Positions 1 through 29,350 of a stretch of DNA of 64,000 nucleotides are shown here, one piece after another (the stretch's first letter is position 1; every line of letters begins with the position of its first letter). The DNA is from Escherichia coli (GTDB lineage Bacteria; Pseudomonadota; Gammaproteobacteria; Enterobacterales; Enterobacteriaceae). The notes beneath the pieces were generated by a model. It was not told the origin of the DNA. It saw only the letters and a program-made list of their open reading frames with translations, and made no database searches. The stretch lies in the NCBI RefSeq assembly GCF_030384885.1, contig NZ_CP128613.1. The stretch is one strand, 5' to 3'. Made by a program: the position numbers and the translations under genes.

Positions 1-554
1 TGTCCAAAATCGCTGACCAGCTGATCGTGGGTGGTGGTATCGCTAACACCTTTATCGCGGCACAAGGCCACGATGTGGGTAAATCCCTGTACGAAGCTGA
101 CCTGGTTGACGAAGCAAAACGTCTGCTGACCACCTGCAACATTCCGGTTCCGTCTGACGTTCGCGTAGCAACTGAGTTCTCTGAAACTGCACCGGCTACC
201 CTGAAATCTGTTAACGATGTGAAAGCTGACGAGCAGATCCTGGATATCGGCGATGCTTCTGCGCAGGAACTGGCTGAAATCCTGAAGAATGCGAAAACCA
301 TTCTGTGGAACGGCCCGGTTGGCGTGTTCGAATTCCCGAACTTCCGCAAAGGTACTGAAATCGTGGCTAACGCTATCGCAGACAGCGAAGCGTTCTCCAT
401 CGCTGGTGGCGGTGACACTCTGGCAGCAATCGACCTGTTCGGCATTGCTGACAAAATCTCCTACATCTCCACTGGCGGCGGCGCATTCCTCGAATTCGTG
501 GAAGGTAAAGTACTGCCTGCAGTAGCGATGCTCGAAGAGCGCGCTAAGAAGTAA
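1..554 (+). CDS. pgk: Phosphoglycerate kinase, C-terminal part (5' end lies outside the window)
   Basis: ORF open from the window edge to TAA at 552-554; translation ends ...[14 protein letters not shown], matching Pgk C-terminus; followed by fbaA as in the pgk-fbaA operon. Confidence 0.93.
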
Positions 555-616
555 AAAATCACAGGGCAGGGAAACCTGCCCTTGTTGCAGCGCGCTTTTA
601 GAGCACGCATTTTTTC

Positions 617-742
617 ATACTCTAAATAATTCGAGTTGCAGGAAGGCGACAAGAGAGTGAATCCCCTGGAGCTTACATAAGTAAGTGACTGGGGTGAGCG
701 AACGCAGACGCAGCACATGCAACTTGAAGTATGACGAGTATA
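617..742 (+). repeat. ERIC/IRU enterobacterial repetitive intergenic consensus element (126 bp)
   Basis: Contains GTGAATCCCCTGGAGCTTACAT and AAGTAAGTGACTGGGGTGAGCG (the ERIC1R-complement and ERIC2 primer motifs); 126 bp near-identical (2 mismatches) to the inverted copy at 12369-12494. Confidence 0.9.
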
Positions 743-768
743 AGGCCCGACGATACAGGACAAGAGAC

Positions 769-1848
769 ATGTCTAAGATTTTTGATTTCGTAAAACCTGG
801 CGTAATCACTGGTGATGACGTACAGAAAGTTTTCCAGGTAGCAAAAGAAAACAACTTCGCACTGCCAGCAGTAAACTGCGTCGGTACTGACTCCATCAAC
901 GCCGTACTGGAAACCGCTGCTAAAGTTAAAGCGCCGGTTATCGTTCAGTTCTCCAACGGTGGTGCTTCCTTTATCGCTGGTAAAGGCGTGAAATCTGACG
1001 TTCCGCAGGGTGCTGCTATCCTGGGTGCGATCTCTGGTGCGCATCACGTTCACCAGATGGCTGAACACTATGGTGTTCCAGTGATCCTGCACACCGACCA
1101 CTGCGCGAAAAAACTGCTGCCGTGGATCGACGGTCTGCTGGACGCGGGTGAAAAACACTTCGCAGCTACCGGTAAGCCGCTGTTCTCTTCTCACATGATC
1201 GACCTGTCTGAAGAATCTCTGCAAGAGAACATCGAAATCTGCTCTAAATACCTGGAGCGTATGTCCAAAATCGGCATGACTCTGGAAATCGAACTGGGTT
1301 GCACCGGTGGTGAAGAAGACGGCGTGGACAACAGCCACATGGACGCTTCTGCACTGTACACCCAGCCGGAAGACGTTGATTACGCATACACCGAGCTGAG
1401 CAAAATCAGCCCGCGCTTCACCATCGCAGCGTCCTTCGGTAACGTACACGGCGTATACAAGCCGGGTAACGTTGTTCTGACTCCGACCATCCTGCGTGAC
1501 TCTCAGGAATATGTTTCCAAGAAACACAACCTGCCGCACAACAGCCTGAACTTCGTATTCCACGGCGGTTCCGGTTCTACTGCTCAGGAAATCAAAGACT
1601 CCGTAAGCTACGGCGTAGTGAAAATGAACATCGATACCGATACCCAATGGGCAACCTGGGAAGGTGTTCTGAACTACTACAAAGCGAACGAAGCTTATCT
1701 GCAGGGTCAGTTGGGCAACCCGAAAGGCGAAGATCAGCCGAACAAGAAATACTACGATCCGCGCGTATGGCTGCGTGCCGGTCAGACTTCGATGATCGCT
1801 CGTCTGGAAAAAGCATTCCAGGAACTGAACGCGATCGACGTTCTGTAA
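769..1848 (+). CDS. fbaA: Fructose-bisphosphate aldolase class II (359 aa)
   Basis: Protein begins MSKIFDFVKPGVITGDDVQK; start ATG 769 preferred over the track's in-frame ATG 685, which lies inside the ERIC repeat. Confidence 0.95.
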   Translation: MSKIFDFVKPGVITGDDVQKVFQVAKENNFALPAVNCVGTDSINAVLETAAKVKAPVIVQFSNGGASFIAGKGVKSDVPQGAAILGAISGAHHVHQMAEHYGVPVILHTDHCAKKLLPWIDGLLDAGEKHFAATGKPLFSSHMIDLSEESLQENIEICSKYLERMSKIGMTLEIELGCTGGEEDGVDNSHMDASALYTQPEDVDYAYTELSKISPRFTIAASFGNVHGVYKPGNVVLTPTILRDSQEYVSKKHNLPHNSLNFVFHGGSGSTAQEIKDSVSYGVVKMNIDTDTQWATWEGVLNYYKANEAYLQGQLGNPKGEDQPNKKYYDPRVWLRAGQTSMIARLEKAFQELNAIDVL

Positions 1849-1872
1849 GATATTCCTTTCTGCTTATCTCAA

Positions 1873-1897
1873 GGCCCGCTCTGCGGGTCTTTTTTTC
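1873..1897 (+). terminator. Rho-independent terminator after fbaA
   Basis: GC hairpin GCCCGCTCTGCGGGT followed by a T7 run. Confidence 0.75.
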
Positions 1898-2038
1898 GCC
1901 AAAAGCAAGGTGATGCAGATGAGAAATCTGTGATCTATTTGGCAAAATTATGCTTTATTGTTTACCCTTGTCAGACTGCCCGTCATAAGGCGGCGGAGTG
2001 TATTTCTCCATTTTGAGTCAGTTGAAAAGGAATATTGA

Positions 2039-2899
<861 letters not shown>

Positions 2900-2908
2900 T
2901 CAACGCTG

Positions 2909-2950
2909 AGGCCAGATAATACTCTCTGGCCTCTCTCTTATTAGTTTTTC
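2909..2950 (+). terminator. Putative intrinsic terminator after mscS
   Basis: Inverted repeat GAGGCCAGA...TCTGGCCTC followed by a T-rich tract. Confidence 0.55.
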
Positions 2951-3037
2951 TGATTGCCAATTAATATTATCAATTTCCGCTAATAACAATCCCGCGATAT
3001 AGTCTCTTCATCAGATACTTAATTCGGAATATCCAAC

Positions 3038-3673
3038 GTGTTTTCTTATTACTTTCAAGGTCTTGCACTTGGGGCAGCTATGATCCTGCCGCTCGGTCCA
3101 CAAAATGCTTTTGTGATGAATCAGGGCATTCGTCGTCAGTACCACATTATGATTGCCTTACTTTGTGCTATCAGCGATTTGGTCCTGATTTGCGCCGGGA
3201 TTTTTGGTGGCAGTGCGTTATTGATGCAGTCGCCGTGGTTGCTTGCGCTGGTCACCTGGGGCGGCGTAGCCTTCTTGCTGTGGTATGGTTTTGGCGCTTT
3301 TAAAACCGCAATGAGCAGTAATATTGAGTTAGCCAGTGCCGAAGTCATGAAGCAAGGCAGATGGAAAATTATCGCCACCATGTTGGCAGTGACCTGGCTG
3401 AATCCGCATGTTTACCTGGATACTTTTGTGGTGCTGGGTAGCCTTGGGGGGCAGCTTGATGTTGAACCAAAACGTTGGTTTGCGCTCGGGACAATTAGCG
3501 CCTCTTTCCTGTGGTTCTTTGGTCTGGCTCTTCTCGCAGCCTGGCTGGCACCGCGCCTGCGCACGGCAAAATCACAGCGCATTATCAATCTGGTAGTGGG
3601 ATGTGTTATGTGGTTTATTGCCTTGCAGCTGGCGAGAGACGGTATTGCTCATGCACAAGCCTTGTTCAGTTAG
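3038..3673 (+). CDS. argO: Arginine exporter ArgO (LysE family, 211 aa), GTG start
   Basis: Translation [25 protein letters not shown]...; LysE-type membrane protein in the position of argO/yggA. Confidence 0.9.
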
Positions 3674-3765
3674 GCGCTATCTGATGGAAAAATAAAACAG
3701 AGGCGCTAAGCTTGCCTCCAGAGGTCCTGAATTTTGGGCAAGTCAATTAACACGGAGAGACTAAC

Positions 3766-4506
3766 GTGAAGTTCAAAGTTATCGCCCTGGCGGCATTAAT
3801 GGGTATTAGCGGGATGGCAGCGCAGGCTAACGAATTGCCGGATGGACCGCATATTGTCACCTCCGGTACGGCAAGCGTGGATGCGGTGCCAGACATTGCC
3901 ACTCTTGCGATTGAAGTCAACGTGGCCGCGAAGGATGCCGCTACTGCCAAGAAACAGGCGGATGAGCGCGTCGCACAATACATTTCCTTCCTTGAACTCA
4001 ATCAGATCGCGAAAAAAGATATCAGCTCAGCGAACTTACGCACCCAGCCAGATTATGATTATCAGGATGGTAAAAGTATCCTGAAAGGCTACCGTGCTGT
4101 GAGAACGGTGGAAGTCACGCTCCGTCAGTTAGACAAACTGAATTCCTTGCTGGATGGTGCGCTGAAGGCGGGTCTTAACGAAATTCGTTCTGTATCGCTG
4201 GGCGTGGCGCAGCCGGATGCCTATAAAGACAAAGCGCGTAAGGCAGCGATTGATAACGCGATTCATCAGGCGCAGGAACTGGCGAACGGCTTTCATCGTA
4301 AACTAGGGCCGGTATATAGCGTGCGCTACCATGTTTCCAACTATCAGCCCAGCCCAATGGTGCGGATGATGAAAGCCGATGCCGCGCCGGTCTCAGCCCA
4401 GGAAACTTACGAGCAGGCTGCTATTCAGTTTGATGATCAGGTCGATGTGGTCTTCCAGTTAGAACCTGTGGATCAACAACCCGCTAAAACACCTGCCGCA
4501 CAATAA
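3766..4506 (+). CDS. yggE: YggE, periplasmic DUF541/SIMPL-family oxidative-stress protein (246 aa)
   Basis: Signal peptide MKFKVIALAALMGISGMAAQA; synteny with argO. Confidence 0.88.
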   Translation: MKFKVIALAALMGISGMAAQANELPDGPHIVTSGTASVDAVPDIATLAIEVNVAAKDAATAKKQADERVAQYISFLELNQIAKKDISSANLRTQPDYDYQDGKSILKGYRAVRTVEVTLRQLDKLNSLLDGALKAGLNEIRSVSLGVAQPDAYKDKARKAAIDNAIHQAQELANGFHRKLGPVYSVRYHVSNYQPSPMVRMMKADAAPVSAQETYEQAAIQFDDQVDVVFQLEPVDQQPAKTPAAQ

Positions 4507-4673
4507 TACTTGTAGCCCGACGTATTGGTCGGGCTAATGCCTTTACCCGATATTGCCTCCTTTTTCTGTAATTTTCTGTAAAACCATGACGTAATCACCT
4601 ATCTTTGCTCGCGGTTTCATCAAGGATAGGCTGACTGAAACGGTTAAGCGGACAAGGATGCGGGGGAGCGGGG

Positions 4674-5570
4674 ATGGACATTTTTATTTCGAAAAAGATG
4701 CGCAATTTCATTTTATTAGCGCAAACCAATAATATTGCCCGGGCGGCAGAAAAAATCCATATGACGGCTTCGCCATTTGGCAAAAGCATTGCCGCGCTGG
4801 AAGAACAAATTGGCTATACGCTATTTACCCGCAAAGATAATAATATCAGCCTCAATAAAGCCGGGCAGGAACTGTATCAAAAACTGTTCCCGGTTTATCA
4901 ACGGCTTTCTGCGATTGATAATGAAATCCATAACTCAGGACGTCGTTCACGAGAAATTGTGATAGGCATAGATAATACTTATCCGACCATTATTTTTGAT
5001 CAGTTGATTAGTCTCGGAGATAAGTACGAAGGCGTGACCGCCCAGCCAGTTGAGTTCAGCGAAAACGGCGTTATCGATAATCTTTTTGACCGTCAGTTAG
5101 ATTTTATAATCTCCCCACAGCATGTATCTGCACGAGTTCAGGAACTGGAAAACCTGACTATCAGTGAACTACCACCGCTGCGATTGGGCTTTCTCGTTTC
5201 TCGCCGTTATGAAGAGCGACAAGAGCAAGAGTTGCTTCAGGAGCTACCGTGGCTACAAATGCGCTTTCAGAACCGGGCCAACTTCGAAGCAATGATTGAT
5301 GCGAATATGCGTCCTTGTGGGATCAATCCCACCATTATTTATCGACCTTACAGTTTTATGGCCAAAATCAGCGCCGTGGAGCGCGGACATTTTCTGACGG
5401 TGATCCCGCATTTTGCCTGGCGACTGGTGAATCCGGCAACGCTGAAATATTTTGATGCGCCGCACAAGCCGATGTATATGCAGGAATATCTTTATTCAAT
5501 CAGAAATCATCGATATACCGCCACGATGCTTCAGCATATTGCTGAAGATCGTGACGGGACGAGTCATTAA
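4674..5570 (+). CDS. ygfI: LysR-family transcriptional regulator YgfI (298 aa)
   Basis: N-terminal HTH (NIARAAEKIHMTASPFGKSIAALEEQIG) and LysR substrate-binding domain; sits next to the sbm operon. Confidence 0.85.
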   Translation: MDIFISKKMRNFILLAQTNNIARAAEKIHMTASPFGKSIAALEEQIGYTLFTRKDNNISLNKAGQELYQKLFPVYQRLSAIDNEIHNSGRRSREIVIGIDNTYPTIIFDQLISLGDKYEGVTAQPVEFSENGVIDNLFDRQLDFIISPQHVSARVQELENLTISELPPLRLGFLVSRRYEERQEQELLQELPWLQMRFQNRANFEAMIDANMRPCGINPTIIYRPYSFMAKISAVERGHFLTVIPHFAWRLVNPATLKYFDAPHKPMYMQEYLYSIRNHRYTATMLQHIAEDRDGTSH

Positions 5571-7045
5571 CCCAGCATCGAGCCGGTTGCGATTAAATTA
5601 CGGTGTAAGTCAAAGACGTGGCTAAGATCGTGGTGAATATGTCCGCCGGGCGCATTTTCCAGATAGCGATGCAGATAATCCCGATACATAGGATGTGCAC
5701 AATTATCAATGATGGTGCGGGCGCGTTGAAGCGGGGAAAGACCACGCAGATCGGCGATCCCTTGTTCGGTGATGATCACTTTGACGCTGTGTTCGCTGTG
5801 ATCAACATGGCTGCACATTGGCACGACGGTTGAGATCTTGCCTTCTTTAGCAATCGACGGGGCCATAAAGATCGACAGATACGCGTTGCGTTCAAAATCA
5901 CCGCTGCCACCGATGCCGTTCATCAGATCGACCCCGGCTACGTGCGTTGAGTTGGCATGCCCGTAAATATCAAACTCCAGGCCGACGTTCAGAGCGATGA
6001 CGCCCAGACGACGGATGATTTCCGGGTTATTGGAAATCTCCTGCGGACGCAACACAATGCGGCTGGCAAAGTAATCCATATTGTCGTAAATCTTGCGCAG
6101 GGAATCGGCCGAGATAGTCAGGCTGGAGGCGCTGGCCCCGCTGATTTTGCCCGTTTCCAGTAAATGCACCACCGATTCCTGTAGCACTTCCGAATACATC
6201 ATGAACGGAGGAATTTCCGGGTTTTCCCCTAGTCGCGCCATGACTGCATTATTGATATTGCCCACGCCACTTTGCAGCGGCAGAAATTCCGGCGGAATAC
6301 GCCCATGCGCCATTTCCTGCAACAAGAACGTGACCACGTTATCGGCAATCTGCTGGCACATGGGATTTTGCTTATCCAGCATATTACCGGCGTCGGGCAA
6401 GTTGGTTTCCACGACGGCGACAATCTTTTTCGGATCGATTTGCACATAGCGGGTACCGACGCGATCCATTGCATGGAAGATCGACACGCTATTGCGCCGC
6501 GGTGGCGCGCCAGGAATCACAATATCCGCCAGTTCTGCAACGCGCGGATCGTGATAGTGATTGAGTTCAATGATCACTTTCTTCGCCCGCAGCAGCCAGG
6601 TCGGCGCATTACCGATCCCGCTGGTTAACCAGACTCGACCATCCGGTGCCAGTGCCGATGCTTCAATGACGGCAACATCAATTTCGCCGAAGAAACCGTA
6701 ATTGACCATTTGCGCCACTTCGCTCAAATGCAGGTCAACGAAACTCACCGCGCCCTGATTGATCTTTTTACGTAAACCGGACGATGTTTGATATGGCGCA
6801 CGCCAGGAAACAGCATCGGCGTCAGAAAGTACATCGTCAGCGGCGGCGCTGATTGACGCCCCCGTCAGCAGGCGGATTTGATACGGCTTTTTGGCCTCAT
6901 GCTGTTCGTTAGCTCTGCGGGCAATCGCGTTGGGTAGGGCTTTCGGCGAACCCGCCGGGGTAAAGCCGCTAAATGCCACCATGTCGTTATGCTGGATAAT
7001 TTCTGCCGCTTCATCGGCGGTCATCCTTGTCCACTGAGTTTCCAT
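5567..7045 (-). CDS. scpC: Propionyl-CoA:succinate CoA-transferase (492 aa)
   Basis: Acetyl-CoA hydrolase/transferase-family sequence; last gene of the sbm-argK-scpB-scpC operon. Confidence 0.92.
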   Translation of the reverse strand: METQWTRMTADEAAEIIQHNDMVAFSGFTPAGSPKALPNAIARRANEQHEAKKPYQIRLLTGASISAAADDVLSDADAVSWRAPYQTSSGLRKKINQGAVSFVDLHLSEVAQMVNYGFFGEIDVAVIEASALAPDGRVWLTSGIGNAPTWLLRAKKVIIELNHYHDPRVAELADIVIPGAPPRRNSVSIFHAMDRVGTRYVQIDPKKIVAVVETNLPDAGNMLDKQNPMCQQIADNVVTFLLQEMAHGRIPPEFLPLQSGVGNINNAVMARLGENPEIPPFMMYSEVLQESVVHLLETGKISGASASSLTISADSLRKIYDNMDYFASRIVLRPQEISNNPEIIRRLGVIALNVGLEFDIYGHANSTHVAGVDLMNGIGGSGDFERNAYLSIFMAPSIAKEGKISTVVPMCSHVDHSEHSVKVIITEQGIADLRGLSPLQRARTIIDNCAHPMYRDYLHRYLENAPGGHIHHDLSHVFDLHRNLIATGSMLG

Positions 7046-7068
7046 TTTTACTCCTTCGATCGCAGGGA

Positions 7069-7854
7069 TTAATGACCAACGAAATTAGGTTTACGTTTTT
7101 CGAGGAAAGCGTTCATCCCTTCCTGGTAATCTTCGCTGTCATAAACCGCGCGGCGCATCCCCTGAATACGTTCAAATTCATCGGAGTTCATGGTGTGCGC
7201 TTCGCCCAGTACACGCAGTTCTTCTTTGATAACGGCAATGGCTAACGGCGCTTTCTCAGAGATGTGGTGCGCCATTTGTAAGGTGAAATCTTCCAGTTCT
7301 TCCACTTCCACAACATGGTTGAGGATGCCGACAGCCAGCGCGCGCTGGGCTGTGATTGGCGAAGCGGTAAAAATCAGCTCTTTGACAATGTGGAAGCCCG
7401 CGTCGCGGGTCAGGTTGTGAATGCCGACCAGGTTATACGGGACGCCGAGGTTTACAGGCGTCATTGAGAAGGTTGAGGTACTGGCGGCGATGATCAGATC
7501 GGAACTCATGATCATTTCAAATGCGCCCCCCCAAACACTACCTTCCACCATCGAAATGATCGGTTTCGGGAATTTTTGGATCATGCGGGTGATTTGACGC
7601 AACGGATCATCATAGGAGAGCGGATCGCGACCGCCAGACGGCAGTTCGTGAATATCGTGACCTGCGGAGAAGACTTTGGATCCACTCGGCGCGCGCAAAA
7701 TGATACAGCGAATTTCCGGCCGGTTGAGATCGCTTAATGCCTGCATAAGATCATCAATAAAGACTTTACTTAAGGCATTAAGTTTTCGGCCATAGTTAAA
7801 CTCAATGACCGCCACTTTGTTGATAGTGACAACGTTCACATACTGATAAGACAT
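7069..7854 (-). CDS. scpB: Methylmalonyl-CoA decarboxylase (crotonase fold, 261 aa)
   Basis: Begins MSYQYVNVVTINKVAVIEFNYGRKLNALSK; start 7854 chosen rather than the track's upstream ATG 7896. Confidence 0.9.
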   Translation of the reverse strand: MSYQYVNVVTINKVAVIEFNYGRKLNALSKVFIDDLMQALSDLNRPEIRCIILRAPSGSKVFSAGHDIHELPSGGRDPLSYDDPLRQITRMIQKFPKPIISMVEGSVWGGAFEMIMSSDLIIAASTSTFSMTPVNLGVPYNLVGIHNLTRDAGFHIVKELIFTASPITAQRALAVGILNHVVEVEELEDFTLQMAHHISEKAPLAIAVIKEELRVLGEAHTMNSDEFERIQGMRRAVYDSEDYQEGMNAFLEKRKPNFVGH

Positions 7855-7864
7855 AAAAATTCCT

Positions 7865-8860
7865 TTAATCAAAATATTGCGTCTGGATAAATTCACTGAG
7901 CTGTCGCAGGCCGGTGCGCGGTGAGAGCGTATTGTTTTTGACCGCTAAAAGCGTCTGGCGGTAATAGCGATCGAAATCTTCATTCGCGAACAGGTGATTC
8001 AGTACTTCTTCTTCGGTTTGTTTACGCAGCCATTCCACCGATTGTTGTTGCCGCACTTGCTGTAAACGACCACTGGCAGTTAGCGCGGTTTTGAAGTCGA
8101 TGATGGCGTGCCAGATCTCATCGATTCCACGTTTTTCCAGTGCGCTACAAGTCAGAACTCGTGGCTGCCATTCGTCGTATTTACGTCGCAGAATATGCAG
8201 GGCACTCTCGTACATATGCCGGGCAATGGCGACATTGGTATGGTTATCGCCATCGTCTTTGTTGATAACGATCAGATCTGCCACTTCCATCAGCCCCTTT
8301 TTAATCCCCTGCAGATCATCGCCGCCACCGGCAATTTGCAACGAGATAAAACAGTCCACCATGCGGGCAACTTCCGTTTCCGACTGTCCGACGCCAACCG
8401 TTTCGACAATCACTACGTCATAACCCGCCGCTTCGCATAACAGCATTAATTCCCGCGCTCGCTGACTGGCACCGCCCAGATGGCCGGAGGATGGTACCGG
8501 GCGAATAAACGCCGCCTCGGCACGCGCCAGGTCATTCATGCGGGTTTTATCCCCGAGAATGCTACCGCCAGTGACCGGGCTGCTGGGATCGACCGCAATA
8601 ACTGCAACCTTTAATCCCTCACGAATCAACAACATGCCAAAGGCTTCAAGAAAGGTACTTTTCCCCGCGCCGGGTGTGCCGGTAACACCCAGTCGCAGGG
8701 CGTTACCACAGAACGGCATAATGGCATCAAGCAGTTGCGTACTTAGCGCCTGATGACGCGGGTGACGGCTTTCCACCAGCGTCATGGCCTGGGCGAGCGT
8801 GGCACGCTCACCCTGACGTAAGCGGCGAATACTTTCTGCCAGCGTGGCTTCATTAATCAT
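7865..8860 (-). CDS. argK: MeaB/ArgK-type GTPase, methylmalonyl-CoA mutase accessory protein (331 aa)
   Basis: P-loop GTPGAGKST; overlaps the scpA stop by 8 nt. Confidence 0.92.
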
Positions 8861-10997
8861 GATGCTGGCTTATCAGATTCAGTACGTCGCGCACGCTGTC
8901 GAGCATAGGCGTACCTGGACCATAAATCGCCGCCACGCCGCGCTCCTGCAGGAAGGCGTAATCCTGCGGTGGAATGACGCCACCCGCGACCACGAAAATA
9001 TCTTCGCGATTCCATTTCTTCAGCGCTTCGACCAGTTCCGGGATCAGCGTTTTATGACCGGCAGCCAGTGAAGATGCGCCCACTATGTGAACGTCGTTTT
9101 CTACTGCCAGGCGGGCGATCTCTTCAGGTGTAGAGAACATCGGGCTTAAATCTACGTCGAAACCGAGATCGGAATAGGCGCTGGCGATCACTTTCGCGCC
9201 GCGATCGTGCCCATCCTGGCCCATTTTGGCGATCAGAATGCGCGGGCGACGACCATTGTCGGCAAGGAACTGCTCTGTTTGCGCAACAATGGCATCGAAC
9301 TCGGAGGCCGATTTTTCCGACTGATGATAGCTTTGCGCAATTACGCCGGTAACACACTGGCTTGGCACCAGATAACGGTCAAAAGCGGCTTCCAGCGCAT
9401 CGGATATTTCACCCAGGGTGGCGCGAACGCGAGCGGCATTAACAGCGGCAGCCAGCAGGTTTTCGTTATGCTGTGCGGCGTGAGTCAGGGCGTTCAACGC
9501 GGCGGTTACGGCGGCATCATCACGGGTGGCGCGAATGCGTTCCAGCGAAGCAATTTGCTCGTTACGCACCATCACGTTGTCGATCTCAAGTACATCGGTT
9601 TCGTCTTCGTGATCCAGTTTGTACTTGTTGACACCAACGATGACACGCTTGCCCTGGTCGATCAACGACTGTTCGCGCGCGGAGGCCTCTTCGATCATTC
9701 GTTTTGGCAGACCTGCTTCGATCGCTTTCGCCATGCCACCGGCTTCGTCGATCTGTTGGATAATGGCTCTGGCTTGTTTGACGATTTGATCGGTCAGCGA
9801 TTCAACGTAATAGGATCCGGCCAGTGGATCGACGGTGCGGCAGAGTTCTGATTCTTCCTGAATGATGATCTGGGTATTGCGGGCAATGCGTGCTGAGAAA
9901 TCGGTAGGCAAACCAAGCGCTTCATCAAAGGCGTTGGTATGCAGTGACTGAGTACCGCCCAGCGTTGCAGCCAGTGCTTCAATGGTGGTGCGGATAACGT
10001 TGTTATACGGATCCTGTTCAGTCAGGCTCCAGCCTGAGGTCTGGCAGTGGGTACGCAGCGCCAGTGATTTCGGATCCTGTGCGCCAAATCCACTGACCGC
10101 TTCGCTCCATAAATAACGTGCCGCACGCAACATGGCGACGTTCATAAACAGATCCATGCCAATGCCGAAGAAAAACGACAGGCGAGGAGCGAAGTCATCA
10201 ATTTTCAGCCCAGCGGAGATTGCTGCTTTGATGTACTCAATCCCATCAGCGAGCGTAAATGCTACCTGCTGCACGCAGTTGGCACCCGCTTCACCCATAT
10301 GGTAACCGCTGATACTGATGGTATTAAAGCGAGGCATGTTGCCAGAACACCAGGCAATGATGTCTGCGATAATACGCATTGACGGTTTCGGCGGGTAAAT
10401 ATAGGTGTTGCGGCAGAGATACTCTTTGAGGATATCGTTCTGAATGGTGCCTGTCAGTTTATCGGGCGTAACTCCTTGCTCTTCTGCGGCGACGATATAA
10501 AACGCCAGTACGGGTAACACTGCGCCATTCATGGTCATCGAAACCGACATTTTATCCAGCGGGATCTGGTCGAACAGGACTTTCATATCTTCCACGGTGT
10601 CGATAGCAACGCCCGCTTTGCCGACGTCGCCCGCCACGCGCGGGTTATCGGAGTCGTAGCCACGGTGGGTGGCAAGGTCAAACGCAACGGAAAGACCTTT
10701 TTGCCCGGCGGCCAGGTTACGGCGATAAAAAGCGTTGGACTCTTTTGCTGTTGAAAAACCAGCATACTGACGGATGGTCCACGGTTGGGCGGTATACATA
10801 GTGGCACGCGGGCCACGAACGTAGGGTGGCAAACCAGGAAGGGTACCGGTCACTTCCAGATTATCGAGATCGGCTTCAGTATACAGCGGCTTGATGGCGA
10901 TCCCTTCTGCGGTTTGCTGAACCAGCGAGTCGACAGTTTTCTCCCGACGGCTCAATTCCTTGTTGGCAAGCTGTTGCCACTCCTGCACGTTAGACAT
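8853..10997 (-). CDS. scpA: Methylmalonyl-CoA mutase (cobalamin-dependent, 'sleeping beauty mutase', 714 aa)
   Basis: Begins [24 protein letters not shown]; C-terminal B12-binding domain (DxHxxG-type, ...[13 protein letters not shown]...). Confidence 0.93.
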
Positions 10998-11200
10998 TAT
11001 TTGCTCCATAAAACGCAATCAAAATGAGGGTATTTGCGCTTACGGTGAGCTTTTTACGTGGGTTTGTCGCCAGCAAAAAAAATGCATTCAGACGTCGTTT
11101 TTTGCCGCCTGAGATTTGTCTATTTTGTGATGTGATTCAAGGAATACAAAAAGAACTGGAGGTGATGCCTGGTATGTATTACCAGGCATTATTTGATGGA

Positions 11201-12094
11201 TTATTCCTGACGAAGAACTTTGTGACCATAATCGAGCAACGCATCAGTGACTTTACGCATCATGCGGCTTTCAGGAGCAAAGCGGTGCCAGTAGAGCATC
11301 CGGCGTTGAAATAGCCCTGGCGTTAAGTCAATCAGTTCGCCGCTGGCCAGTTCTTTCTCGATTTGCAGATGTGGGATCATACAGCAGGTGGTCCCCTGAC
11401 GAGCAAGTTGCACGAACGCTTCTGAAGAATTAACGATATGGCAGGGTACGCTGCCTGGAGGCAGATCAAAGTTTTGCTGCAAAAAGGCCTGGTGCATATC
11501 ATCAAGATGGTCAAACGCGACCACTGGCGCTTTCAGTAATGCCGAACGCGTTACGCCGTTAGGGAAATATTTTTCGGCGAACGGTTTTGAGCTGACGAAC
11601 AGATAGTCGAGCGCACCGAGCTTATCGACAAGACAACTCGGTAGCGCCTGATGTTGAATACTCACCGCGCCGACCACTTCGCCGCGACGCAGACGTTCCT
11701 GAGTGCGGGTTTCATCTTCTACCTGCAAGTTGAGGCGGATAGGCGAATCAGCTAACACAGGAGCCAGCGCCGGAAGCAACCACGTCGCCAGACTGTCAGC
11801 GTTGACCGCCAGTGAAAGCAGCAGCGGAGTTGAACCGGTTTGTTCATCGCCCAGCCACTCTTCTTCCAGTAACTCCACCTGGCGTAGCAGTGCCAGCAGT
11901 TTTTGCCCTTGTTCCGTCGGGCGCGGCGGTACGGTACGCACCAACAGCGGCTGCCCGAACATATTTTCCAGTTGCTTAATGCGCTGTGAGACGGCTGATT
12001 GTGTAATGCACAGCTTTTGTGCCGCGCGCTCAAATCCTCGTTCACGTATCACCGCATCCAGTGCCTGTAATGTTCTGTAGTCCGGGCGTTTCAT
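11201..12094 (-). CDS. argP: LysR-family regulator ArgP/IciA (297 aa)
   Basis: Begins [43 protein letters not shown]; the 22-codon upstream extension in the track is rejected. Confidence 0.92.
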
Positions 12095-12368
12095 TGCTGT
12101 TGTCTGCTCCTGGTAAATGCTTTTTCCTGCACTATGACACAATTTTGCGTCAGGTTGCATATACCGAAGCCGTCGGCGGGTACATTTGTATCAGTGGTTA
12201 AACACGCAGCTTAAAAGATCAGGGATTTGCGCTATTGCATTTCGCTCAGCGAGTTCGCGCCCTGGAGCGGCATACCCAGAACTTTATATGCTTTGTTTGC
12301 GGGGCGAAAGTTTATGGATGAGTTAACCACGCGACTTGCCAACGGGGTCTGAATCGCTTTTTTTTGTA

Positions 12369-12494
12369 TATACTCGTCATACTTCAAGTTGCATGTGCTG
12401 CGTCTGCGTTCGCTCACCCCAGTCACTTACTTCTGTAAGCTCCTGGGGATTCACTCTCTTGTCGCCTTCCTGCAACTCGAATTATTTAGAGTAT
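12369..12494 (-). repeat. ERIC/IRU element, inverted copy
   Basis: Reverse complement of 617-742 with 2 mismatches; lies in the argP-rpiA intergenic region. Confidence 0.9.
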
Positions 12495-12531
12495 AATGCG
12501 AGTGAAATTTCATACCACAGGCGAAACGATC

Positions 12532-13191
12532 ATGACGCAGGATGAATTGAAAAAAGCAGTAGGATGGGCGGCACTTCAGTATGTTCAGCCCGGCACCATT
12601 GTTGGTGTAGGTACAGGTTCCACCGCCGCACACTTTATTGACGCGCTCGGCACGATGAAAGGCCAGATTGAAGGGGCCGTTTCCAGTTCGGATGCGTCCA
12701 CTGAAAAACTGAAAAGCCTCGGCATTCACGTTTTTGATCTCAACGAAGTCGACAGCCTTGGCATCTACGTCGACGGTGCAGATGAAATCAACGGCCACAT
12801 GCAGATGATCAAAGGCGGCGGCGCGGCGCTGACCCGTGAAAAAATCATTGCTTCGGTTGCGGAAAAATTTATCTGTATTGCAGACGCTTCTAAGCAGGTT
12901 GATATTCTGGGCAAATTCCCGCTGCCAGTAGAAGTTATCCCGATGGCACGTAGTGCAGTGGCGCGCCAGCTGGTGAAACTGGGCGGTCGTCCGGAATACC
13001 GCCAGGGCGTGGTGACCGATAACGGCAACGTGATCCTCGACGTCCACGGCATGGAAATCCTTGACCCAATAGCGATGGAAAACGCCATAAATGCGATTCC
13101 GGGCGTGGTGACTGTTGGCTTATTTGCTAACCGTGGCGCGGACGTTGCGCTGATTGGCACACCTGACGGTGTCAAAACCATTGTGAAATGA
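12532..13191 (+). CDS. rpiA: Ribose-5-phosphate isomerase A (219 aa)
   Basis: Begins [39 protein letters not shown]; start 12532 sits outside the ERIC repeat (track start 12496 is inside it). Confidence 0.94.
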
Positions 13192-14863: not shown

Positions 14864-15006
14864 ACGGTAAAGCCCTCACCGAAGCGAGGGCTTGAAGGAG
14901 AAGGGTTATGATGCGACTTGTCATCATACTGATTGTACTGTTACTCATAAGTTTCCCAGCTTATTAACAGTCAGTCACAGGGGAGGAGCAATCCTCCCTT
15001 ACCCTT
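14864..15006 (-). ncRNA. sibC: SibC (RygC) antisense antitoxin sRNA, about 140 nt; ends approximate
   Basis: Minus-strand promoter-like TTGACA (15042-15037), 17-nt spacer, TAATTT (15019-15014); hairpin AGCCCTCACCGAAGCGAGGGCT at 14871-14892 near the predicted 3' end; fully covers ibsC on the opposite strand. Confidence 0.6.
14908..14967 (+). CDS. ibsC: Type I toxin IbsC, 19-aa hydrophobic peptide (MMRLVIILIVLLLISFPAY)
   Basis: ATGATG start 8 nt downstream of AAGGAG; a single TM-like hydrophobic peptide matching the Ibs toxin family; located between serA and fau, where K-12 has ibsC/sibC; too short for the ORF track. Confidence 0.75.
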   Translation: MMRLVIILIVLLLISFPAY

Positions 15007-15067
15007 ACTCACTAAATTAGGTTAAAGAATCAACGATGTCAATCAGGGCGATGCAGGTGTGTCGCCC

Positions 15068-15688: not shown

Positions 15689-15874
15689 AGGGAATCTCCG
15701 AGATGCCGCCGCAGGCTGTAACCCTTGAACCCTTGGTTCAAGGTGAATGTGTCGTCACAGTTTTAAGGCTTCTCGGACGGACCGAGCATGCTCACCAACC
15801 GCGGAGCGCCACATTCTTGTGGTATGAAATATCGGCTCAGGGGACTGGCCCGCTTGCGAACATCTCAGAGAAAT
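15689..15874 (-). ncRNA. ssrS: 6S RNA (SsrS), regulator of sigma70-RNA polymerase
   Basis: Reverse complement reads AUUUCUCUGAGAUGUUCGCAAGCGGGCCAGUCCCCUGAGCCGAUAUUUCAUACC ... GGCAUCUCGGAGAUUCCCU, the E. coli 6S RNA sequence; ends within a few nt. Confidence 0.93.

Positions 15875-29169: not shown

Positions 29170-29350
<181 letters not shown>

Follow-up and report, generated by a model that had tools for sequence, protein, structure and literature searches.

The 64,000-nucleotide stretch of Escherichia coli DNA analyzed here (contig NZ_CP128613.1; the whole stretch is referred to as the window) contains, near its start, two copies of ERIC (the enterobacterial repetitive intergenic consensus), also called the intergenic repeat unit (IRU), in inverted orientation. 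The nearest complete genome is that of strain 2013C-4282, with 100% and 99.9% identity over two 726-nt test stretches, and its annotation gives the gene order as pgk, ERIC copy 1, fbaA, mscS, argO, yggE, srsR/ygfI, scpC, scpB, meaB, scpA, argP, ERIC copy 2, rpiA, and serA (Table 1). Both copies are intergenic: copy 1 occupies the co-transcribed spacer between pgk and fbaA (site 1), in the sense orientation relative to the operon transcript, and copy 2 lies between argP and rpiA (site 2), upstream of a conserved hexamer that is probably the -10 box of rpiA. A preliminary description of this DNA had reported two inverted ERIC/IRU copies of 126 nt and 98% identity that bracket fbaA through argP; direct comparison of the copies (124 of 126 positions identical) and the order of the genes confirm both statements.

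Table 1. Features around the two ERIC copies, in positions of the window
Feature	Position	Strand	Remark
pgk, 3' part	27..554	+	
G+C-rich hairpin just 3' of pgk	563..582	+	conserved across genera
ERIC copy 1, pgk-fbaA spacer	617..742	+	62 nt past the pgk stop, 26 nt ahead of the fbaA ATG
fbaA	769..1848	+	true start, ATG at 769
argP	11201..12094	-	divergent from rpiA
yqfE (LysR-fragment) remnant	12095..12368		89-bp and 24-bp deletions relative to K-12
Spurious 64-aa open reading frame	12232..12426	-	antisense through the yqfE remnant
ERIC copy 2, argP-rpiA spacer	12369..12494	-	ends 37 nt ahead of the rpiA ATG, 274 nt from the argP ATG
TATAAT hexamer, probable rpiA -10 box	12492..12497	+	assigned by conservation
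rpiA	12532..13191	+	ATG at 12532

A repeat finder run on the first 14 kb of the window located the inverted arms at 617-742 (plus strand) and 12369-12494 (minus strand); they are 126 nt long, 98% complementary, and spaced by 11626 nt. Direct alignment leaves mismatches between copy 1 and copy 2 at element positions 51 (T/A) and 62 (T/G), and the likeness ends abruptly on both sides of the element. When the element was used as a BLAST query within the window, the two copies were matched at E = 1e-62 and 6e-60, and their resemblance is therefore not a matter of chance. The preliminary description had named an alignment showing unrelated sequences as the outcome that would overturn it; the alignment shows related ones. 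A sensitive BLAST search with the element found no third ERIC copy in the 64-kb window.

The 126-nt unit shared by the two copies agrees with the ERIC unit of ∼126 to 127 bp and, like it, is an imperfect palindrome. For both copies, such a fold is predicted whichever strand is read (z from -3.8 to -7.6; none of 200 shuffled sequences did as well), and the element termini, TACTC... and ...GAGTA, are inverted with respect to each other. The core of both copies holds the sites of ERIC1R and ERIC2, the primers of ERIC polymerase chain reaction (ERIC-PCR) typing. The ERIC1R site reads GTGAATCCCC[T/A]GGAGCTTACA[T/G], which is the complement of that primer and departs from it at a single base per copy (51 in copy 1, 62 in copy 2), and the ERIC2 site, AAGTAAGTGACTGGGGTGAGCG, is exact in both. 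Multiple dispersed copies are the rule, as megablast places a median of 5 to 6, and up to 11, highly similar ERICs in an E. coli genome. [quoted passage not shown] Passages in three reviews likewise describe ERIC as a MITE with terminal inverted repeats, target-site duplications, and a terminal TA (PMC3184786, PMC2229807, PMC10969869). The present pair thus matches the ERIC/IRU elements of Enterobacteriaceae in length (126 nt), imperfect palindromy, both primer sites, TA-rich ends and targets, intergenic placement, occurrence in several copies per genome, strain presence/absence polymorphism, and the existence of short (internally deleted) and long (∼70-nt inserts) variants at the same loci, and differs from them in nothing structural. 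These elements were reportedly described by Sharples and Lloyd in 1990, Hulton and colleagues in 1991, and Wilson and Sharp in 2006 (cited in PMC3184786, PMC2229807, and PMC10969869); we know of no established transposase for them, and none is named in the sources consulted. Very probably, then, the pair consists of two independent copies of ERIC, the 126/127-bp enterobacterial miniature inverted-repeat element, and does not act as a functional unit.

At gathering thresholds, no Rfam family covers the ERIC copies. Under permissive settings, RF02818 (V_AS5, Vibrio RNA AS5) aligned over its full length (1-129) with both of them, at window positions 615-734 (plus) and 12373-12496 (minus), i.e., on the ERIC-sense strand, with 36.8 and 41.4 bits and E values of 1e-6 and 9e-8. 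With a gathering score of 96, which neither alignment approaches, the ERIC copies are not members of this family; RF02818 was probably built on the transcript of an ERIC-like repeat of Vibrio.

The near identity of the two copies has a simple explanation: they are 98% identical because the whole ERIC family of E. coli is uniform. To provide a baseline from other loci, metagenome data were scanned with a 20-nt ERIC core. The contigs retrieved carry E. coli-type ERICs in at least five other flank contexts, identified by their neighbor genes as those of a YbhJ-type hydratase, CusC, a PreT-like protein, GyrA, and PanC, and the copies at these five loci are 96.8 to 98.4% identical to copy 2. In genomes without copy 2, the best match to it is 97.6 to 99.2% identical; in the one case checked, this match was the pgk-fbaA copy. 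An identity of 98% is therefore the norm for the ERIC copies of E. coli. A proposal that copy 1 is the unique closest relative of copy 2 by best match was dropped, as other loci are almost as similar and only an A at element position 38 (A38) was left of it.

The preliminary description had proposed comparing ERIC presence and absence at the two sites across E. coli genomes, and this was carried out on 5426 complete genomes. The query for site 1 consisted of the ERIC with 60 nt of flank on either side (246 nt in all), with a coverage threshold of 80%; for site 2, tight flanks around the element were used, and the site was called filled if ≥80% of the query was covered. Copy 1 is in place in 5414 of the 5426 genomes, and copy 2 is present in only 66 (∼1.2%), the K-12 site being empty by alignment. 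Copy 1 is thus an old insertion at TA that is fixed in E. coli. Work on genes of central metabolism by 5' rapid amplification of cDNA ends (RACE) located no transcription start in the 214-nt pgk-fbaA spacer and led to the conclusion that fbaA is served by the upstream epd-pgk-fbaA promoters (PMC2759082). Copy 1 is accordingly carried between two cistrons of the polycistronic epd-pgk-fbaA mRNA, in the sense orientation. Its earlier placement in the fbaA 5' untranslated region (UTR) was correct in that the element is transcribed and has to be amended in that, with no start in the spacer (PMC2759082), it lies between two cistrons.

The predicted fold of copy 1 as RNA is a long hairpin of -44.2 kcal/mol (z = -5.8), in which the T51 of the window lineage breaks one pair kept by the A51 form of K-12 copy 1 and of copy 2. 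Upstream of it lies the G+C-rich hairpin at 563-582, which scores as a terminator on the minus strand; in the plus direction, its stem is followed by TTGTTGC instead of a T run, and the hairpin appears from its sequence to be a weak terminator or stabilizer between pgk and copy 1. The RNA of copy 1 would accordingly present a long hairpin between this pgk-distal hairpin and the fbaA ribosome-binding site, where it may affect segmental mRNA processing or stability. In Yersinia, as related in reviews, co-transcribed ERICs alter the stability of neighboring mRNA in an orientation-dependent manner via an unmasked RNase E site (De Gregorio et al. 2005). Copy 1 resembles the Yersinia elements in being co-transcribed between two cistrons and in the same long predicted hairpin, but it is situated 62 nt past the pgk stop, behind another hairpin; copy 2 differs further in that it is probably not transcribed with rpiA. 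The Yersinia case makes it plausible that copy 1 influences the stability of its mRNA.

At the other end of the segment, the empty form of site 2 reads GTATATAATGCG, and the filled form reads GTATATA, followed by the 119-nt core and TATAATGCG, for a net gain of the core plus TATA. An exact TATAAT is found 30 to 45 nt upstream of the rpiA ATG in 68 of the 68 species loci that contain rpiA, and in K-12 it lies 34 nt ahead of this ATG. The corresponding hexamer of the window (12492-12497), whose first three bases fall within the 126-nt repeat, is on these sequence grounds probably the rpiA -10 box. Copy 2 entered the TATATA run that holds this box, and its TA-rich end regenerates TATAAT, so that rpiA would keep its core promoter, with 126 bp of ERIC taking the place of the native spacer, -35 region, and upstream DNA. 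An mRNA made from the TATAAT promoter would not include copy 2. Since it lies upstream of the box, copy 2 would be promoter-proximal DNA rather than part of the rpiA 5' UTR, to which the preliminary description had assigned it, and that assignment is given up here. On the minus strand, copy 2 has a predicted hairpin of -48.8 kcal/mol (z = -7.6).

Site 2 was also compared in an alignment of six alleles, comprising five filled ones (the window, E2348/69, 06-00048, O139:H1, and MFDS1022581) and the empty one of K-12. All five filled alleles share the identical insertion nucleotide, the orientation, and the private base G62 (G at element position 62), on flanks that differ: E2348/69, of phylogroup B2, has an intact, K-12-like yqfE fragment; a 45-bp deletion marks another group (porcine enterotoxigenic E. 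coli [ETEC], O139:H1, 06-00048); MFDS1022581 has an 89-bp deletion; and the window, together with 13 other genomes, has the 89-bp and a 24-bp deletion. In Escherichia sp. MOD1-EC7003 (region L008), the contig ends in the same insertion with G62, after the intact LysR gene of an island of ∼2.3 kb. Within the metagenome sample, G62 was seen at site 2 only, on a single contig. With the same nucleotide, orientation, and G62 recurring across flank haplotypes, copy 2 goes back to one insertion event. It is a single, fairly old, and still polymorphic insertion, either old enough to have come to lie on several haplotypes or moved among haplotypes by recombination.

The surroundings and the internal structure of the site-2 element vary as well. 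The argP-rpiA spacer (the yqfE fragment; 12095-12368 in the window) is a decayed remnant of the ∼2.3-kb island, which consists of a LysR-family regulator and genes in divergent orientation. It is found whole in Escherichia sp. MOD1-EC7003 (L008, 10904-13247) and in Escherichia whittamii (L009, 18334-20738), is present in part in a region labeled E. coli (L007, 18329-19076), and is absent from Escherichia albertii and other genera, where the argP-rpiA spacers measure 126 to 213 nt. Across the window, E2348/69 (L003, 665-939), and 06-00048 (L004), the ERIC at site 2 occurs in three lengths, namely 126 nt, as in the window, with an additional 71 nt, and with additions of ∼80 and 71 nt. The inserts are two hairpin-rich modules that are homologous to each other, share a direct orientation, and occupy mirror-image places in the palindrome. 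Internal insertions of ∼70 bp in ERIC are known, and among the metagenome contigs, long and short forms also occur side by side at the gyrA-adjacent locus (L127 versus L159) and at the PreT-adjacent locus (L176 versus L191). This variation implies that ERIC modules have been gained or lost repeatedly at fixed loci.

Beyond E. coli, the two sites were followed in a set of regions anchored on YggE from 80 species representatives. In most genera, the pgk-fbaA spacer is ∼90 to 100 nt long and has no ERIC. E. albertii and Escherichia sp. E1V33 have an internally deleted ERIC at the same spot of this spacer as E. coli (L010, 6587-6640, and L011, 5731-5767, respectively), and in E. whittamii and the E. 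coli-labeled L007 site 1 is empty, with TA at the same place. Kosakonia pseudosacchari has a diverged ERIC-like element that is oriented as in E. coli and apparently occupies the same TA; similar elements, again in the same spacer and orientation, occur in four Raoultella regions, in Kosakonia arachidis, and in one metagenome-assembled genome. The Raoultella and Kosakonia elements have 70 to 78% identity, and the pgk-fbaA ERIC across genera could reflect either old orthology with losses or recurrent insertion. At the rpiA site, Intestinirhabdus alba alone has an ERIC outside the carriers of copy 2: a long-form element (L048, 8334-8544) abuts the rpiA TATAAT exactly where copy 2 does, to the nucleotide, and is oriented like it. 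Because E. albertii, Salmonella, Citrobacter, Klebsiella, and Enterobacter have no ERIC at rpiA, an independent insertion in I. alba is the simpler account, and the coincidence hints at a preferred ERIC target at rpiA, whether an insertion hotspot or convergence.

The preliminary description had suggested that the inverted repeats could support inversion of the segment between them. As a homologous-recombination substrate, the pair would flip the 11.6-kb fbaA-argP segment and give rise to inversion isoforms; 126 nt at 98% identity is in principle enough for RecA-dependent recombination, and in some metagenome contigs (L202 and L154) the pgk flank is indeed connected with flanks that belong to other ERIC loci. 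We nevertheless consider such inversion highly improbable. The inverted junction was sought in the 5426 genomes with a chimeric query made of the pgk flank, the ERIC, and the reverse complement of the argP-side flank, and it was found in none of them at ≥80% coverage, including the 66 genomes that have both copies; the suggestion accordingly finds no counterpart in these genomes. The maximum coverage of the query was 59%, as expected for the uninverted arrangement, and the pgk-ERIC-fbaA junction is intact in 5414 genomes. Several two-copy genomes keep the order and strand of the window (e.g., NZ_AP022207.1, with the copies at 957995 and 969947, both plus). In the 14-genome lineage of the window, T51 is confined to copy 1 and G62 to copy 2, and there is therefore no sign of exchange between them. 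Inversion would also cut fbaA off from its only mapped promoters, which are upstream, with no transcription start in the spacer to replace them. The fbaA gene is essential. Because this essential gene has no promoter of its own, inversion would probably kill the cell or be strongly selected against. As for a programmed switch, inverted repeats flank the segment as they do in fimS and Hin/Gin-type systems; in contrast to these, no recombinase gene is present among the annotated genes within or beside the segment (in 2013C-4282), ten housekeeping genes lie inside it, and one orientation is seen in 5426 genomes, so that neither both orientations in nature nor a nearby recombinase was found. The joins in metagenome contigs are most simply explained by assembly: five such contigs (L202, L154, L116, L197, and L182) join a flank of one ERIC locus, be it pgk-fbaA or another, to the opposite flank of a different one, and they are most likely short-read chimeras across the 126-nt repeat, with real ERIC-mediated rearrangement as the alternative. 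A coupling of rpiA and fbaA at the RNA level, in which a plus-strand transcript through copy 2 would serve as antisense RNA against the copy 1 part of the fbaA mRNA, is scarcely credible at all. The copies would be complementary at 124 of 126 positions if both were transcribed from the plus strand, and ERIC can be aligned over its length, at sub-threshold scores, with RF02818, a Vibrio "antisense RNA" family; however, the probable rpiA -10 box is downstream of copy 2, so that no known plus-strand transcript covers the element, each ERIC RNA would fold on itself, ∼99% of E. coli have no copy 2, and any two oppositely transcribed ERICs would act alike.

If the two copies are independent ERICs, the source of copy 2 is a separate matter. 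It is identical to the K-12-type copy 1 except for the private G62, and A38 is common to sites 1 and 2, with C or T in nearly all sampled copies at other loci (the exceptions being one contig with a yeiS/preT flank and contigs carrying the site-1 flank). The rough prior for finding two of ∼7 highly similar copies within 12 kb of a 5.03-Mb genome is ∼0.1. These points favor copy 2 as a local daughter of copy 1, produced by short-range transposition or gene conversion rather than derived from an unrelated master; we hold this origin tentatively, as a possibility somewhat short of even chances, since the case leans on one informative nucleotide in a family whose uniformity (97 to 99%) leaves little resolution, the loci compared were a sample, all with the exact 20-nt core, and site 2 also has long forms whose internal modules are missing from copy 1. 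It would take many independent exact excisions, each restoring the same GTATATAATGCG, for copy 2 to have been ancestral in the Escherichia lineages with the LysR island and to have been lost precisely from ∼99% of E. coli, and we regard this history as unlikely. The same G62 insertion does adjoin the intact island in another Escherichia species (L008), and copy 2 is found on at least four diverged E. coli flank haplotypes, including that of the phylogroup B2 strain E2348/69; yet one insertion spread between lineages by homologous recombination gives the same pattern, and in 'E. coli' SCPM-O-B-8794 (L007) a portion of the island is present without an ERIC.

Several points weigh against the picture of two independent copies with the positions described here. 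Each complete assembly represents one consensus arrangement per strain, and rare inverted subpopulations would escape detection. The contigs of the metagenome baseline were chosen for an exact 20-nt core, by which their identities are biased upward. The assignment of the -10 box draws on conservation and on a perfect consensus hexamer, and a simple scan detected no full sigma-70 promoter in the filled or the empty rpiA upstream region. This is because the -35 region is weak in both alleles, and the scan is therefore silent on gain or loss of a -35 element and on any change in promoter strength. Finally, an influence of copy 1 on the fbaA mRNA, or of copy 2 on the transcription of rpiA, is put forward as an inference.

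Taken as two independent ERICs, the pair is made up of ordinary members of a long-known family, one a species-wide copy between pgk and fbaA and the other a rare, polymorphic copy that is mildly notable for its landing site. The biological weight is small, given that work of 1990-2006 already made known ERICs, their strain polymorphism, and the hairpins that their transcripts form. For other strains of E. coli, 14 additional ERICs at intergenic sites unoccupied in K-12 are cited in a review (Wilson and Sharp 2006, via PMC10969869). In literature other than that list of 14 loci, we found no description of an ERIC at the argP-rpiA locus. The filled and empty alleles of site 2 document a TA-site insertion beside a conserved promoter box and are usable for testing the effects of ERIC on the expression of a neighbor. 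A bolder proposal, to which we attach a low probability, is that ERIC has recently been mobile in Escherichia and favors the TA-rich -10 regions of promoters, with the rpiA copy, which would rebuild TATAAT and displace everything upstream of it, as a natural promoter rewiring of a central pentose-phosphate gene in ∼1% of E. coli; if this were true, the ERIC at the same nucleotide in I. alba would mark a true insertion hotspot or a selected promoter effect.

The element has practical consequences for annotation. An internal GTG of ERIC opens a frame that reads 'VTGVSERRRSTCNLKYDEY' (the 'MTGVSERRR' open reading frame [ORF]). In copy 1, the frame from the GTG at 685 runs into fbaA and adds 28 false codons in the ORF track; in copy 2, the frame is on the minus strand, where it forms a free 64-aa ORF that heads towards argP and reaches no gene. 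In some genomes, the Prokaryotic Genome Annotation Pipeline (PGAP) labels this copy 2 ORF as a 'hypothetical protein'. Of the spurious in-frame upstream ATG that the preliminary description had seen at each copy, the fbaA extension holds, the one at rpiA does not, and the start codon is GTG. ERIC thus lengthens fbaA falsely at its N terminus and gives rise to a spurious 'hypothetical protein' near rpiA; short-read assemblies, moreover, break at the element.

Other features of the window are unconnected with the ERIC copies. A second inverted pair (2945-2986 and 4713-4754), 42 nt long, A+T-rich, and with 71% complementarity, lies in the mscS-argO and yggE-srsR spacers and looks like a chance match. 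Elsewhere in the window, Rfam matches above threshold comprise the SIB RNA at 14892-15042 (minus), a type I antitoxin that adjoins ibsC, the 6S RNA (ssrS) at 15691-15874 (minus), and naRNA4 at 29178-29255 (minus).

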